Of a stretch of DNA of 64,000 nt, positions 15,223 to 22,954 are shown piece by piece. Where the stretch lies: the NCBI RefSeq assembly GCF_041886205.1, contig NZ_CP169029.1, one strand, 5' to 3'. The number at the start of each line of letters is the position of its first letter. Positions within the stretch are counted from its first letter, which is position 1. Source of the DNA: Escherichia coli. Its GTDB lineage: Bacteria; Pseudomonadota; Gammaproteobacteria; Enterobacterales; Enterobacteriaceae. The translations under genes were made by a program, and so were the position numbers. The notes beneath the pieces are model-generated. The model worked only from the letters and a program-made list of their open reading frames with translations. It was not told where the DNA came from and ran no database searches.

Positions 15223-16635
15223 TTATTTCCGCAGTTCAGCAGCCCGCTTCTTACCAATAAACAACCAGCCCAGCCCCAGTGCGATAAACCACAGCGGGGT
15301 GACCAACAGCGCCTGGCGAGTGTCATCTTCCAGTGTCAGCAACACGACCACGAACACAAAGAACGCCATACATACCCAGCACATCAGCTTGCCGAGCGGC
15401 ATCTTGTAGATCGACTTCTCATGCAGATGAGGACGCTGTTTGCGGTAAACCAGGTACGAGCAAAGGATAATCGTCCAGACGAACATAAACAGAATCGCGG
15501 AAACGGTTGTAATCATCGTGAACGCGCCAATCACGCTAGGATTCACATACAGCATCACCACGCCACCGAGCAGGCAGATGCAGGAGAAGGTCAGCCCTTT
15601 CGCTGGTACTGCGCGCTTAGAAAGTTTAGCGAACGCTTTCGGTGCCACACCTTCCTGCGCCAGACCAAACAGCATACGGCTGGTAGAGAAGACGCCGCTG
15701 TTAGCGGAAGACGCCGCAGAGGTCAGCACCACAAAGTTGATCACGCTTGCGGCAGCAGGCAGCCCTACCAACACGAACAGTTCAACAAACGGGCTTTTCT
15801 CCGGGACTACCGAACTCCACGGCGTCACGGACATAATCACAATCAGCGCGAAGACGTAGAACATAATGATACGGATCGGAATGGAGTTAATCGCGCGTGG
15901 CAGTGATTTCTCCGGATCTTTGGTTTCCGCAGCTGTTGTACCTACCAGCTCAATCCCCACGAAAGCGAAAACCGCTATCTGGAATCCGGCAAAGAAGCCA
16001 CTTAAACCTTTCGGGAACCAGCCGCCGTCATTCCACAAATGCGCGAATGACGCTTCCACACCGGTCGGTGACTGAAAGTGCATCGCCACCATGACCAGGC
16101 CGACGACAATCAGCGACACGATGGCGACGATTTTGATCATCGCAAACCAGAACTCCATCTCACCGAACATTTTCACGGTGGCAAGGTTGAGCGTCAACAG
16201 CAGCACTATCACCGCCAGCGAGGCGACCCAGTCGGAGAGATCGGGGAACCAGAACTGAGCATAAGCAGTGATCGCCACCACGTCTGCCATACCGGTTACA
16301 ACCCAGCAGAACCAGTAAGTCCAGCCGGTGAAATATCCTGCCCACGGCCCGAGTAAATCGGAAGCGAAGTCACTAAAAGATTTGTATTCCAGATTCGAAA
16401 GCAGCAATTCCCCCATTGCCCGCATCACGAAAAAGAGCATAAAACCGATGATCATATAAACGAAAATGATCGACGGCCCGGCAAGGCTAATCGTTTTGCC
16501 AGACCCCATAAACAACCCCGTACCAATGGCACCGCCAATGGCAATAAGCTGAATATGTCGGTTTGTGAGATTGCGCCGTAGCGACTGTTCAGCCGGAGCC
16601 TGATCATCGGCAACGACTTTTACCTGATCTACCAT
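15223..16635 (-). CDS. cycA: D-serine/D-alanine/glycine:H+ symporter CycA
   Basis: 470-aa ORF, APC-family permease. Confidence 0.93.
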   Translation of the reverse strand: MVDQVKVVADDQAPAEQSLRRNLTNRHIQLIAIGGAIGTGLFMGSGKTISLAGPSIIFVYMIIGFMLFFVMRAMGELLLSNLEYKSFSDFASDLLGPWAGYFTGWTYWFCWVVTGMADVVAITAYAQFWFPDLSDWVASLAVIVLLLTLNLATVKMFGEMEFWFAMIKIVAIVSLIVVGLVMVAMHFQSPTGVEASFAHLWNDGGWFPKGLSGFFAGFQIAVFAFVGIELVGTTAAETKDPEKSLPRAINSIPIRIIMFYVFALIVIMSVTPWSSVVPEKSPFVELFVLVGLPAAASVINFVVLTSAASSANSGVFSTSRMLFGLAQEGVAPKAFAKLSKRAVPAKGLTFSCICLLGGVVMLYVNPSVIGAFTMITTVSAILFMFVWTIILCSYLVYRKQRPHLHEKSIYKMPLGKLMCWVCMAFFVFVVVLLTLEDDTRQALLVTPLWFIALGLGWLFIGKKRAAELRK

Positions 16636-16943
16636 GTTTTTTTCTTCCTGTACCTGTCTGTGTTGTTCAGGCTCTACGGCCTTTAGTCAGTCTATGATAC
16701 GACGAATCTGTATCGGGACTCATCGATATTAGGTAACAATACGCGGGATGAATACTAAGATTTAGATCTAATGTTAATTTTATGTTTAAAGTGAGTGTCA
16801 TATCACGGTGATAACGCGAAACAGCTCACAAAAATACACGCTTACGGGGTCTTTGCAACACAAAATAGCGCCGTTTGGCAAACTGAAGGGTTTATTGCTG
16901 AATGCCTGCTCCCCTCTGGTTCGAGGGGAACAGAATGCGCTGC

Positions 16944-17564
16944 TTAGAGGATTTCCAGCAGTTCGACTTCAAACACCAGGGTGCTGAACGGAGGGATGGA
17001 TGCGCCTGCGCCGCGCTCGCCATATGCCAGTTCCTGCGGGATAGTCAGTTCCCATTTAGAACCTACCGGCATCAGAGTCAGTGCTTCAATCCAGCCAGGG
17101 ATCACGCCATTAACCGGGAATTCAGCGGGTTCACCACGAGCAACGGAGCTGTCAAACACGGTGCCGTCGATCAGTTTACCGGTGTAATGAACACGAACGC
17201 GGTCAGTACGTGCCGGAATTGCGCCTTCACCCTGGTTGATCACGCGGAATTGCAGGCCAGATTCGGTGCTGTTCACACCTTCTTTTTTGGCATTTTCTTC
17301 AAGATATTTCACACCTTCGGCAGCCATCGCCTGGAAACGCTGACGACGAACGGCATCGGCGCGTTCGTGGATTTCACGCAGCGCGCGATGCACCACATCA
17401 ACCGGAACAGCCGGATGTTTGCTTTCCAGCGCATCTGCAATACCAGCCACCAGCGCCTCCGGCAGCAGCCCTTGCAGGCCAGATTCACTCAGTTGTTGGC
17501 CTACCTGTAAACCAATGCCGTAGCTTGCTTGCGCTTCGATGGTGTCAAAAGTTGGGGTGGTCAT
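16944..17564 (-). CDS. fklB: FKBP-type peptidyl-prolyl cis-trans isomerase FklB
   Basis: ORF 16944..17615, start at internal Met [18 protein letters not shown] (206 aa). Confidence 0.9.
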
Positions 17565-17782
17565 CGTATTTCCTTTCTTAGGGTATAAAAGTAGCGGGCA
17601 GCATATCAGCCACACTTCTTTGGGTAAAACTTTGTCGCAGGAATGATGACAAATCCCGGGGAAAAAGAAACAATAGCAATATCCCGTATGAATATAATAA
17701 AGGCGGGTTTACCACGGACATCATAGCGTTAGCTTATTCATAGGCTATGATTGAGGAACAAGACGCGGAGCAGGAGGAAACC

Positions 17783-18421
17783 ATGCCCGGGCGCTTTGAA
17801 CTAAAACCAACCCTGGAGAAAGTCTGGCACGCGCCGGACAATTTTCGCTTCATGGACCCGCTGCCGCCGATGCATCGTCGGGGGATCATTATTGCCGCCA
17901 TTATATTGGTGGTCGGATTTCTGCTTCCATCTGATGATACGCCCAACGCGCCGGTGGTGACGCGTGAAGCGCAGTTAGATATTCAGTCGCAATCACAACC
18001 GCCGACAGAAGAACAGCTGCGGGCGCAATTAGTCACACCACAAAATGATCCTGATCAGGTGGCTCCGGTCGCTCCAGAACCTATACAGGAAGGCCAGCCA
18101 GAAGAACAGCCGCAAACTACCCAAACACAACCATTCCAGCCAGATAGCGGAATTGATAATCAATGGCGCTCTTACCGTGTCGAACCCGGTAAAACGATGG
18201 CGCAGCTGTTCCGCGACCACGGACTGCCCGCTACCGATGTCTATGCAATGGCGCAGGTAGAAGGCGCGGGTAAGCCGCTGAGTAATTTGCAAAACGGGCA
18301 AATGGTGAAAATCCGCCAGAACGCCAGCGGCGTGGTGACGGGCTTAACCATTGATACGGGGAATAATCAACAGGTCCTGTTCACCCGCCAGCCGGATGGC
18401 AGTTTTATTCGTGCGCGGTAG
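17783..18421 (+). CDS. ytfB: OapA/LysM-domain protein YtfB
   Basis: ORF 17747..18421, start at [23 protein letters not shown]; proline/glutamine-rich linker. Confidence 0.88.
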
Positions 18422-18522
18422 ATGAAGGGTCAACCAAAAGCCAGCTAAGGATTGTCTCTTTGATGACCTTACGTCTGGCTTCCAGTGCCTGGGGGGAAAC
18501 CATACTGATATGTTGACATCCT

Positions 18523-18542
18523 CCACGCCCTGAAGGACGTGG
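18523..18542 (-). repeat. Right-end subterminal hairpin of IS200/IS605 element (13 nt downstream of tnpB stop); candidate omega-RNA / TnpA recognition structure
   Basis: Top strand CCACGTCC-TTCA-GGGCGTGG, 8-bp stem with one G-T wobble. Confidence 0.6.
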
Positions 18543-18555
18543 ATCCCTGCTACGT

Positions 18556-19764
18556 TCAGGCTGTCGCCTGAATCATTTCGGTGGGTTCCTGCTTCAACGA
18601 GCGGCCTGACTGCACCATCTCTCCACAGGCAAGAACGGCGTGCCCCGCCGCTAAAATGTTACGAGCGCCATTTACATCGGCGTTCGCTGTATATCCACAT
18701 GCCTGGCATCTGAATTTACTTTGTGACAGGCGATTTTCTTTCGCTGTATGACCACAGCACGCGCATCGCTGGCTTGTGTACGCTGGCGGAACAGCAAGCA
18801 CCTGACCGCCACGCCAGAGCTGCTTGTACTCAAGCTGGCGGCGCATTTCATACCAGCCCTGATCCAGTATCGTACGGTTTAAACCTGATTTTGCCCGGAC
18901 ATTGCGACCCGGCTGGCTGACCGTACCCGCTGCTGACTTTGACATGTTGCTGACCTTCAAATCCTCAATGACTATCATTGCGTGGTTTTTGCTGACGGTC
19001 GTTGTGACTTTGTGAAGGTAGTCCCTGCGGATATTTGCGATACGGGAATGCAGTCGCTGTATTTTGCGTTCCTGCTTCTGCCAGTTATTGCTGAATTTGA
19101 CCTTGCGGCTTAACTGTCGCTGAAGTCTCGCCAGCTTCTTCTGGTTTTTCTGAAAACTGTTTACAGGCTCAAAGACTGTGCCATCTGACAGCGTGGCGAG
19201 TTTAGCCACGCCAGCATCCAGCCCGACCATTGATGCTGAAGGGTGAACCGGAGTTGATACTTCACTTTCTGTCTGAATACTGATGTACCACTTACCGCAG
19301 GACTGGCTGACAGTGACATTTTTCACAACTCCCGTGACCTGACGGCTATTCCGGTAGCGCATCCAGCCCAGTTTCGGCAGAAAAATACGGCTGTTTTCCT
19401 GATCGAGCTTAACGCCCTGCGGGTAGCGGAATGCATCATTCTGTCCCCGCTTTTTGAATCGGGGAAAAGCAGCCCGCTTCTGGAAGAAGTTTTTGTAAGC
19501 CCGCTCAAGGTCTTTCAGTGACTGTTGCAATGGCTGTGACGGGGCATCTTTAAGCCATTGCGTTTCAGTGGCATTTTTCCACTCAACCAGCCAGGAAGCC
19601 ATTTTTCCGTAAGGGATGTATTTATTACCGGCCTCATGATTCTCATTCTGACGTGCCAGAGCACGATTGAAAACGAAACGACATGCGCCTGCGAAGCGCC
19701 TCATTTCACGCTCCTGTTGACCACCGGGTCTTAACTGGAATTTAAATGCCTGTAGTCGTTTCAC
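18556..19764 (-). CDS. tnpB: TnpB (IS605 OrfB) RuvC-like RNA-guided endonuclease, 402 aa, apparent GTG start
   Basis: RuvC-I D in [10 protein letters not shown], RuvC-II E in [11 protein letters not shown], zinc finger CACCGH...CQACGY, RuvC-III D in ADVNGARNI. Confidence 0.85.
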
Positions 19765-19771
19765 AGGCCAA

Positions 19772-20386
19772 ATGATACTTTGGTCTGTGAAAAAAGAAAC
19801 CGATATCCGGCGTGGAAGGCATTGTGTTTTCCTGATGCATGTTCACCTGGTCTTTGTCACCAAATACCGACGCCAGATTTTTGACCATGACGCGACAGAA
19901 AAACTACGCACTTACTTTTCAAAGGTATGTGCTGATTTTGAAGCTGAACTGGTTGAAATGGATGGCGAACCAGATCACGTCCATTTGTTAATTAACTATC
20001 CTCCCAAACTGGCGATATCCAGTCTGGTAAACAGCCTCAAAGGCGTATCGGGTAGGTTACTGCGACGAGATCGACCAGATATTGCAGTCAGGTATTACTA
20101 CAAAGGCGTTTTGTGGAGTCCTGGCTATTTTGCCAGTAGCTGCGGAGGTGCGCCAATATCCGCCATCCGTCAATACATTGAACAACAGCAAACACCTGGT
20201 CAGGTGGAAAACCGCGCCGTATATCCCCGCCCTGAAGGACGGGGTTTTACGGCGCACCGGATAAACCAGGCCAAGCGTATGCTGGTTGATCCAATAATAT
20301 CCCCCAAGCGCAGCAATATTAATATTCACCTGCAATGGGTCGATATCTGGCTTAAAAATATTGTGTTTCTTTCCTTCATCCAATAA
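19772..20386 (+). CDS. tnpA: TnpA, IS200-type HUH Y1 transposase; ORF lacks a stop inside the predicted element and reads through the left end
   Basis: KYRR motif, HUH motif DHVHLLI, C-terminal Tyr in AIRQYIEQQ; start ATG only 7 bp from divergent tnpB start; functional protein probably ends near 20230-20260. Confidence 0.75.
20225..20244 (-). repeat. Left-end subterminal hairpin of IS200/IS605 element
   Basis: Top strand CCCCGTCC-TTCA-GGGCGGGG; shares loop and 12-nt core with right-end hairpin. Confidence 0.6.
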
Positions 20387-20604
20387 GGATTCCATTAACT
20401 GCAAGTGCGCATGGTTAATTTCTAAGAGACGCTGTGATTTTGCATAATGCACACCTTTACTTTGATTTTCACTATGCACAATTTTTAAAAACCACGGGTT
20501 AGCAATATAATAATCCCATGTAAAATCAATAATTTTCTCAATGGCTTTTTGTGGCTGGTTAACCAGATGATTAACAAACGCACCGATACCGACAGCGTAG
20601 AATA
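20245..20604 (-). pseudogene. ytfA: ytfA remnant: C-terminal portion of a possible TetR-like regulator, no N-terminal HTH or start; 3' end runs into the IS element
   Basis: Open frame ...[77 protein letters not shown]... preceded by stop; continues antisense through tnpA 3' region. Confidence 0.5.
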
Positions 20605-21037
20605 ATTACATACCGCACAACAAGAATGTATGGTGTAAGGCGTGGAAGTCATTTTCTTCCCGGGTGCATCGTTATATCCGTGATGAGCGATTTTTGATAT
20701 TAATATCTTTCACCATCCGCTATTTTTACTACTTCAGAAAACAAACTTATTTTTATTAATATCGATTCTTTTTCTGTAAGCATTTAACTACGATATTTAT
20801 AAAAACATTAAACAGGTAACATTACAATGACATTACCAACGACTATTTATTCATTTCGTGCATATTTACCTCGTTTTTCGTCCACCGACAAACCAGTAAA
20901 ATTAAAATTTCATGAATATGCCCGTGCTACATTACTGCCAAATCGTGGAAGAGATCATAATTGCGATGGCAGACGTACTGTTGTGAACCGCCCCGGGAAT
21001 CCTGGAGACTAAACTTCCTGAGAAAGAGGTAAACAGG

Positions 21038-21364
21038 ATGACTAAAAATACTCGTTTTTCCCCCGAAGTCCGTCAACGGGCAGTCCGTATGGTTCTGGAA
21101 AGTCAGAGCGAATATGACTCACAATGGGCGACAATTTGTTCCATTGCTCCAAAGATTGGCTGTACGCCGGAGACTCTGCGTGTCTGGGTTCGCCAGCATG
21201 AGCGGGATACCGGGGGCGGTGATGGAGGGCTCACCACCGCTGAACGTCAGCGTCTGAAAGAGCTGGAACGTGAAAATCGTGAACTGCGCCGCAGTAACGA
21301 TATCCTTCGCCAGGCTTCCGCTTATTTTGCGAAGGCGGAGTTCGACCGCCTCTGGAAAAAATGA
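21038..21364 (+). CDS. IS629 OrfA (HTH transposase subunit, 108 aa)
   Basis: [31 protein letters not shown]...; leucine-zipper-like C-terminus. Confidence 0.9.
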
Positions 21365-22251
21365 TGCCACTGCTGGATAAGCTGCGTGAGCAGTACGGGG
21401 TCGGACCGCTATGCAGCGAACTGCATATTGCCCCGTCAACGTATTACCACTGTCAGCAACAGCGACATCATCCGGATAAACGCAGTGCCCGTGCGCAGCG
21501 CGATGACTGGCTGAAGAAAGAGATACAGCGCGTATACGATGAAAATCACAAGGTATACGGTGTGCGTAAAGTCTGGCGTCAGTTGTTACGGGAAGGTATC
21601 AGAGTGGCCAGATGCACTGTGGCACGTCTCATGGCGGTTATGGGACTTGCCGGTGTTCTCCGGGGTAAAAAGGTCCGTACGACCATCAGCCGGAAAGCCG
21701 TTGCCGCAGGCGACCGCGTAAACCGTCAGTTCGTGGCAGAACGACCTGACCAGCTGTGGGTGGCTGATTTTACTTACGTCAGCACATGGCGGGGCTTCGT
21801 CTATGTGGCGTTCATCATTGATGTGTTTGCCGGATACATCGTGGGGTGGCGGGTCTCATCGTCCATGGAAACGACATTCGTGCTGGATGCACTGGAGCAG
21901 GCGTTATGGGCCCGTCGACCGTCCGGCACGGTCCATCACAGTGATAAAGGTTCTCAGTATGTATCGCTGGCCTACACACAGCGGCTTAAGGAAGCCGGAT
22001 TACTGGCATCAACAGGAAGTACAGGCGACTCGTATGACAACGCGATGGCGGAGAGCATCAATGGTCTTTACAAAGCGGAGGTAATACACCGTAAGAGCTG
22101 GAAAAACCGTGCAGAAGTGGAACTGGCCACACTCACGTGGGTGGACTGGTATAACAATCGACGATTGCTGGAAAGGCTGGGCCATACTCCTCCGGCAGAA
22201 GCAGAAAAAGCTTATTATGCTTCCATCGGAAACGATGATCTGGCAGCCTGA
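21361..22251 (+). CDS. IS629 OrfB (DDE integrase/transposase catalytic subunit, 296 aa); overlaps orfA, typical -1 frameshift arrangement
   Basis: rve-type core ...[49 protein letters not shown]...[11 protein letters not shown]...[15 protein letters not shown]. Confidence 0.9.
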
Positions 22252-22954
22252 GTTCACAGATAAAACACTCTCCAGGAAACCCGGGGCGGTTCAGTTGAGA
22301 TCCACAAACTAGATCTCTCAGACTGGCAAGCATTCAATAAACTAGCGATGGCGTGTAATGCTTACGATGGAATAACAATGAATGGTGATAATTCTTTTGG
22401 ATGGAACCATGAAGCTACATTAGATAATATTCACGCCCAGAAATACAATAAAGCTTACGCGGGTGCGAGGTTAACCGCAGAACTGAAATATTTATTGCAA
22501 GATGTCGAATCCTTCGAACCCAACAGTAAATACACAATACATGAGGTTGTTTTGGGACCTGGTTATGGTACTCCAGATTATACCGGCCAAACGATAGGAT
22601 ACGTTGTAACCCTTCCTGCCCAAATGCCTAATTGCTGGTCATCTGAACTACCAACAATCGATCTTTATATCGACCAACTTCGCACTGTTACAGGCGTTTC
22701 TAATGCCCTCGGATTCATCATTGCTGCATTGCTAAACGCGTATTCTGATTTACCCCATGATTTGAAAATTGGTCTACGTTCCTTATCAAATTCAGCAGCA
22801 ATCTACTCGGGTTTGGGTTTCGAGCGAGTGCCGCAGGACCGAGACATAAGGAGTGATCGTATGCATCTAACGCCAGCAAACCATCCTGACTTATGGACAC
22901 AAGAGAATGGTGAATGGATCTACTTGCGAAACTAATACCTGACGAAAAATAGAA

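Follow-up and report, generated by a model that had tools for sequence, protein, structure and literature searches.

The minus strand of positions 18513-20260 in the window (the whole 64-kb stretch of Escherichia coli DNA analysed here) is in all probability a complete 1,748-bp copy of IS609, a chromosomal element of the IS200/IS605 family with a divergent tnpA/tnpB layout. Over all 1,748 bp it is 97.9% (~98%) identical to the feature annotated as 'insertion sequence:IS609' in K-12 MG1655 (NC_000913.3, 1503161-1504908), a 1,748-bp mobile element that lies between ydcL and ydcO and carries insQ, the gene of a 'putative RNA-guided DNA endonuclease InsQ'. A megablast search with positions 18400-20500 as query in a set of 5,426 complete genomes of E. 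coli returned 100% matches, in which RefSeq names the two products 'RNA-guided endonuclease InsQ/TnpB family protein' and 'IS200/IS605-like element IS609 family transposase'. The element, which the initial annotation of this DNA had assigned to the IS200/IS605 family, is not unusual: it is IS609, which is found elsewhere in K-12 as insQ and annotated by RefSeq, and the same insertion recurs in ~32% of complete E. coli genomes (1,743 and 1,744 of 5,426 for the two junctions with junction-spanning queries, O157:H7 and O55:H7 included). The object is already known: IS609 and its TnpB (InsQ) are listed by ISfinder, EcoCyc/K-12 and RefSeq, and in relatives TnpB has an established role as an RNA-guided nuclease.

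The insertion in ytfA

The limits of the element were set from the K-12 empty site, the ends of K-12 IS609 and nine copies at eight distinct sites, which corrected the span first proposed, 18490-20270, to 18513-20260. The divergent tnpA/tnpB pair was found where it had been placed, both in the ORF listing and on reading the sequence, and its assignment to the IS200/IS605 family was borne out by the NCBIfam models guided_TnpB (NF040570; 390 bits versus a cutoff of 100) and transpos_IS200 (NF033573; 146 bits versus a cutoff of 55, over profile positions 2-126 of 126), together with the Pfam domains HTH_OrfB_IS605, OrfB_IS605 and a Cas12f1-like TNB zinc-ribbon domain in TnpB. No second IS609 copy was found within the 64-kb window.

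The pair had been located between ytfB and ytfA, a position that did not survive comparison with K-12 and with the RefSeq annotation of strain C9, which is identical to the window across 15400-20983. The insertion is not intergenic but lies inside ytfA, a TetR/AcrR-family pseudogene that IS609 splits into two fragments (Table 1), annotated in C9 as pieces of one pseudogene on either side of the element; in K-12 MG1655 ytfA (b4205) is uninterrupted. The further claim that K-12 lacks the element at this place held, the comparison revealing a clean empty site. In a first junction alignment the window and the K-12 empty site had seemed to differ by a 2-bp mismatch, which resolved into a single C/T substitution in the flank once the ends of K-12 IS609 were taken into account.

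Read along its top strand, the element starts with CCGGTGCG... immediately 3' of TTAT and terminates in ...GGATGTCAA. Among eight independent sites the 5' flank is TTAT in seven and TTAC in the remaining one, and the 3' flanks of copies at different sites are unrelated. There is no target-site duplication, the empty site consisting of the left flank (TTAT) and the right flank with nothing doubled, which is the insertion rule of the IS200/IS605 family, 3' of a fixed short sequence and without duplication. Both ends carry an imperfect hairpin of the form CCxCGTCC-TTCA-GGGCGxGG in direct, not inverted, orientation; the two lie in a 21-nt direct repeat (18522-18542 and 20224-20244, 90% identical), each copy of which is itself a hairpin, so that the element shows the direct subterminal imperfect hairpins without terminal inverted repeats that are characteristic of the family. 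TTAT, TCAA, the direct hairpins and the lack of a duplication are the defining features of IS200/IS605 elements.

Table 1. Features of the IS609 copy in ytfA and of its flanks, in window coordinates
Feature	Position	Strand	Remarks
IS609 element	18513..20260	-	Left end 20260, right end 18513; top strand is the minus strand of the window
tnpB (insQ-like)	18556..19764	-	GTG start, 402 aa, no interruptions
tnpA ORF (Y1 HUH transposase)	19772..20386	+	ATG 19772; complete catalytic domain; no stop inside the element
Divergent start region	19759..19792	.	14-nt inverted repeat spanning both start codons; -10-like hexamer
Target / transposon-adjacent motif 5'-TTAT-3'	20261..20264	-	Adjoins the left end on its 5' side
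Left-end hairpin, core CCCCGTCC-TTCA-GGGCGGGG at 20225-20244 in an extended stem	20214..20255	-	Same orientation as the right-end hairpin (direct repeat)
Right-end subterminal imperfect hairpin CCACGTCC-TTCA-GGGCGTGG	18523..18542	-	TCAA cleavage site at 18516-18513, 10 nt further on
Predicted omega RNA scaffold	18513..18690	-	Overlaps tnpB at its 3' end and extends as far as the final right-end base; upstream limit approximate
Predicted 16-nt guide CATATCAGTATGGTTT	18497..18512	-	Right-end flank, within the ytfA C-terminal fragment
ytfA C-terminal fragment	18405..18512	-	RefSeq annotation of identical strain C9; ytfA contiguous in K-12
ytfA N-terminal fragment	20285..20506	-	RefSeq annotation of identical strain C9; ytfA contiguous in K-12

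Another insertion sequence lies close by in the window, a 1,310-bp IS3-family element at 20984-22293 that is inserted in yjfZ and has two ORFs of 108 and 296 aa. It is absent from the otherwise identical strain C9, and its junction recurs in none of the complete E. coli genomes of the collection. From its OrfA sequence we take it to be IS629/IS1203-like.

Coding capacity and predicted guide RNA

All the motifs that had been read in TnpB were located: GLDAGV (D183), VIEDLK (E267), ADVNGARNI (D363) and the zinc finger CACC...CQAC (C334/C337, C353/C356). Alignment to ISDra2 TnpB, the check suggested at the time, equates D183/E267/D363 with D191/E278/D361 and keeps both CxxC pairs; in a phmmer comparison with PDB sequences, TnpB residues 3-376 align with ISDra2 TnpB (8BF8, 8EXA, 8H1J) at E = 8e-56, the IS609 protein having an insertion of 15 residues just after the catalytic Glu. 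The tnpB gene of the ytfA copy looks functional on these grounds, and the proposal that it is a 'functional programmable nuclease' is an inference drawn from sequence. In the accessible portion of one study (PMC12781874) an IS609-type TnpB is among nine purified proteins, and no notable activity is reported for it there; apart from this, the literature on IS609, InsQ and ydcM yielded no experiment on the activity of E. coli IS609 TnpB.

TnpA had been read as retaining the HUH motif and a C-terminal tyrosine, and its catalytic domain is complete. The HUH motif H69-V70-H71 (DHVHLL) and Y135 (RQYIEQ) are present, and the protein aligns with solved IS200-family TnpA structures through the tyrosine helix with HUH and Tyr in place. 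The stop codon, on the other hand, is lost by a single-base change at 20201-20203 (CAG here versus TAG in the O157:H7 element, which occupies the same position in ytfA), so that translation would read through to 204 aa instead of 143, the 61 added codons crossing the left-end hairpin and then ytfA in antisense, as far as 20386. RefSeq treats 19772-20197 as a pseudogene 'missing C-terminus', and the intact annotated tnpA genes of relatives end in ...QQQTPS or ...QQQTPG directly before the stop. Since the stop-loss adds 61 unrelated residues after the helix of the catalytic tyrosine, the mobility of the ytfA copy is doubtful; the read-through TnpA might still work or might not. The same stop-loss is common to other chromosomal copies, which add internal stops or frameshifts and are flagged by RefSeq as pseudogenes, tnpA being broken in those at yedK-ybcM, yeaQ-DUF1869 and ydcL-ydcO.

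Outside the chromosome, conjugative plasmids of Klebsiella, Escherichia and Salmonella widely carry IS609-like elements that are 80-94% identical and have an intact tnpA, and such elements occur even on a Xylella fastidiosa plasmid. Klebsiella plasmids also harbour many fragments made up of the right end only, with no annotated gene there.

The start codons of the two genes had been placed 7 bp apart, which is true of the longest ORFs (ATG 19772 and GTG 19764-19762); a distance of 22 bp is more likely. In relatives with intact tnpA the position of ATG 19772 reads ATT and the gene starts at codon 6, which is ATG in them and GTG 19787 in the window, this GTG being the likely true start of tnpA. 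The minus strand bears a -10-like hexamer, TATCAT, at 19777-19772, 7 nt upstream of the tnpB GTG; it reads TATAAT in the relatives of 80-94% identity, and its complement creates the apparent tnpA start at ATG 19772. The proposal that the promoters are forced to lie inside each other's coding sequence is weakened by this conserved -10-like hexamer in the gap between the likely true starts. A sigma-70 consensus scan and a looser scan of 19660-19880 found no convincing promoter for tnpA or tnpB; by eye, a weak TTGACC-N18-TTTAAA candidate was noticed on the plus strand at 19715-19744. No obvious ribosome-binding site precedes the GTG of tnpB. The hexamer and the inverted repeat might point to a control region common to both genes and to a tnpB transcript that is nearly leaderless, which we put forward as a conjecture because the consensus scans called no promoter.

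The position of the guide was taken from the IS200/IS605 TnpB model (PMC8612924, PMC10055086). The stretch that opens inside the tnpB 3' end and closes with the right end gave no Rfam match at the gathering score; the best matches below it fell on the tnpB strand in this same stretch, where a TnpB guide RNA would be expected, to HgcC (18500-18623, E = 0.006), RAGATH-18 (18586-18629, E = 0.007) and sot0042 (18522-18683, E = 0.15). The sot and HgcC RNAs are presumably TnpB-associated. RAGATH-18-derived RNAs are described as guide RNAs of IS607 TnpBs in the accessible part of a further report (PMC11061315). We aligned 11 right ends of 76-100% identity from E. coli, Klebsiella, Salmonella, Pantoea, Tatumella and Xylella, and conservation among them stops exactly at GTCAA, the sequence being random directly after. 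Their RNAalifold consensus comprises 49 pairs, of which few are broken and 4 show compensatory changes, and the single-sequence fold has a z-score of -2.5. This structured and conserved region would fit a guide (omega) RNA, which we regard as supported, not proven, because some of the conservation of the right end must also serve recognition of the DNA hairpin by TnpA.

Proposed retention, tnpA decay and polymorphism at ytfA

In relatives, TnpB is an RNA-guided nuclease whose guide comes from the right-end flank and whose motif adjoins the left end (PMC8612924), and cleavage of the donor joint promotes retention of the element (PMC10055086). IS609 entered the ytfA pseudogene just 3' of TTAT and without target duplication, and by analogy with IS608 and ISDra2 it would move as single-stranded DNA, its top strand being excised and inserted. 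TnpA, a Y1 HUH enzyme, would recognise both subterminal hairpins and cut 3' of TTAT at the left end and 3' of TCAA at the right end. TnpB would be loaded with a guide RNA whose transcription starts in the 3' end of tnpB, passes across the right end and takes in ~16 nt of the flank. Excision would leave a rejoined site, TTAT followed by CATATCAG..., that is the exact predicted target of TnpB; cleavage of this site would trigger recombinational repair from an element-bearing sister copy, by which the element would be retained. In the ytfA copy the TnpB half of this machinery looks competent and the TnpA half doubtful, and for this copy identity, limits, target motif, catalytic residues, distribution and the tnpA lesion were observed, while we infer expression of the guide RNA, nuclease activity and the role in retention.

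The distribution of the insertion bears on how far such a cycle may operate at ytfA. Position 18510, which is guide position 3 and lies 3 bp outside the right end, is polymorphic for C and T. With genomes that are not independent samples, the element is present with T (CATATC...) in 945 and with C (CACATC...) in 800, and the site is empty with T, the exact sequence that precise excision would leave, in 1,862 and empty with C, the K-12 form, in 1,209; the query for the empty T form was a synthetic 36-mer in which the left flank up to TTAT was joined straight to the right flank. Reading the O157:H7 copy and others directly likewise shows that occupied sites bear either C or T. We had considered the K-12 C variant as a TnpB-escape allele limited to empty sites, an idea that was abandoned as C and T both occur with and without the element. 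All four combinations of presence and C/T are common, so that at least one event must have been repeated, be it a recurrent transition, precise excision or re-insertion. For the most part the ytfA insertion behaves as an old, vertically inherited polymorphism.

Chromosomal copies look to have tnpB under constraint while tnpA decays. Pairwise Nei-Gojobori estimates, which rest on 10-15 substitutions per class in related sequences, gave dN/dS of 0.20-0.26 for tnpB among chromosomal copies and 0.08-0.15 to the plasmid relatives, and of ~0.7-1.5, with very few substitutions, for tnpA among chromosomal copies. The main competitor of this view holds that both genes are idle now and that tnpB is intact merely for want of decay time. 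It draws on the damage to tnpA in every chromosomal copy examined except that of O157:H7, on the yeaQ copy of E. coli A1, in which a stop interrupts tnpB at codon 4, on the promoter scans described above and on K-12 mutation-accumulation lines, in which IS609 made no new insertions (PMC5009759). Yet a full-length tnpB was seen in 10 of the 12 copies inspected, which occupy several sites and belong to lineages 8-13 amino acids apart, the dN/dS of tnpB reflects a synonymous excess over neutrality in the same elements whose tnpA is near 1, and conservation of the non-coding right end exceeds that of synonymous sites. We consider such an inert fossil unlikely, if by no means far-fetched.

Because tnpB appears constrained during the decay of tnpA and all four ytfA combinations are common, one may ask whether the native IS609 TnpB is an active homing-type nuclease that still maintains, spreads or shapes the ytfA polymorphism, re-insertion then amounting to homing after DNA transfer. 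We judge such ongoing shaping of the polymorphism rather unlikely. The apparent persistence of tnpB constraint after tnpA decay could also suggest that the host has co-opted the chromosomal TnpB, say for RNA-guided regulation or for defence, instead of its serving the transposon, and other TnpBs are documented to have been domesticated into nuclease-dead regulators, in the accessible portion of one report (PMC10705468). The known domesticated forms, however, have lost RuvC residues, all three of which are kept here; tnpB still sits within an intact transposon with both ends present, its predicted guide would match nothing but its own empty site, and the different insertion sites have no conserved associated host gene in common. 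Co-option is, in our opinion, highly improbable.

As a discovery the ytfA copy carries little weight, IS609 and the role of TnpB in its relatives being already known. Its value is practical: the exact ends, the TTAT motif, the predicted guide and the single-base stop-loss of tnpA are now described for it, and the site, a natural presence/absence polymorphism over thousands of E. coli genomes, could offer a convenient native system in which to test TnpB-driven retention of transposons in E. coli.

IS609 beside related systems

The closest comparisons are with other IS609 copies. That of K-12 (insQ/b1432, yncK/b4578) shares with the ytfA copy its length, its ends, the TTAT 5' flank and a 402-aa TnpB, but it is inserted at ydcL-ydcO instead of ytfA, and codon 96 of its tnpA is a further, internal stop, whereas the window copy has the stop-loss only. 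The O157:H7 copy (e.g. strain Z1723; tnpA WP_000604943.1) has the identical insertion point and orientation and also an intact 402-aa TnpB, from which the window protein differs at 13 residues; unlike the window copy, it has kept the tnpA stop TAG (143 aa) and carries C, not T, at guide position 3.

Further afield, ISDra2 of Deinococcus radiodurans is the experimentally characterised TnpA/TnpB paradigm (PMC8612924), with which IS609 TnpB is compared here by sequence. Both elements belong to the same family, conserve the D/E/D residues and the zinc finger, and follow a like logic of left-flank motif and, as predicted for IS609, right-flank guide; in ISDra2, however, the genes are co-directional and the motif is TTGAT, whereas in IS609 the genes are divergent and the motif is TTAT. 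IS608 of Helicobacter pylori serves as the structural model for TnpA (PDB 2A6M, 2VHG), the Y1 HUH TnpA match having E = 3.5e-19. The two elements differ in their target, in left-end spacing (16 nt in IS609 versus 19 in IS608) and in the divergent arrangement of tnpA and tnpB in IS609. The tetranucleotide target of IS608 is TTAC in place of TTAT, and its right end closes, as that of IS609 does, in TCAA 10 nt past the foot of the hairpin.
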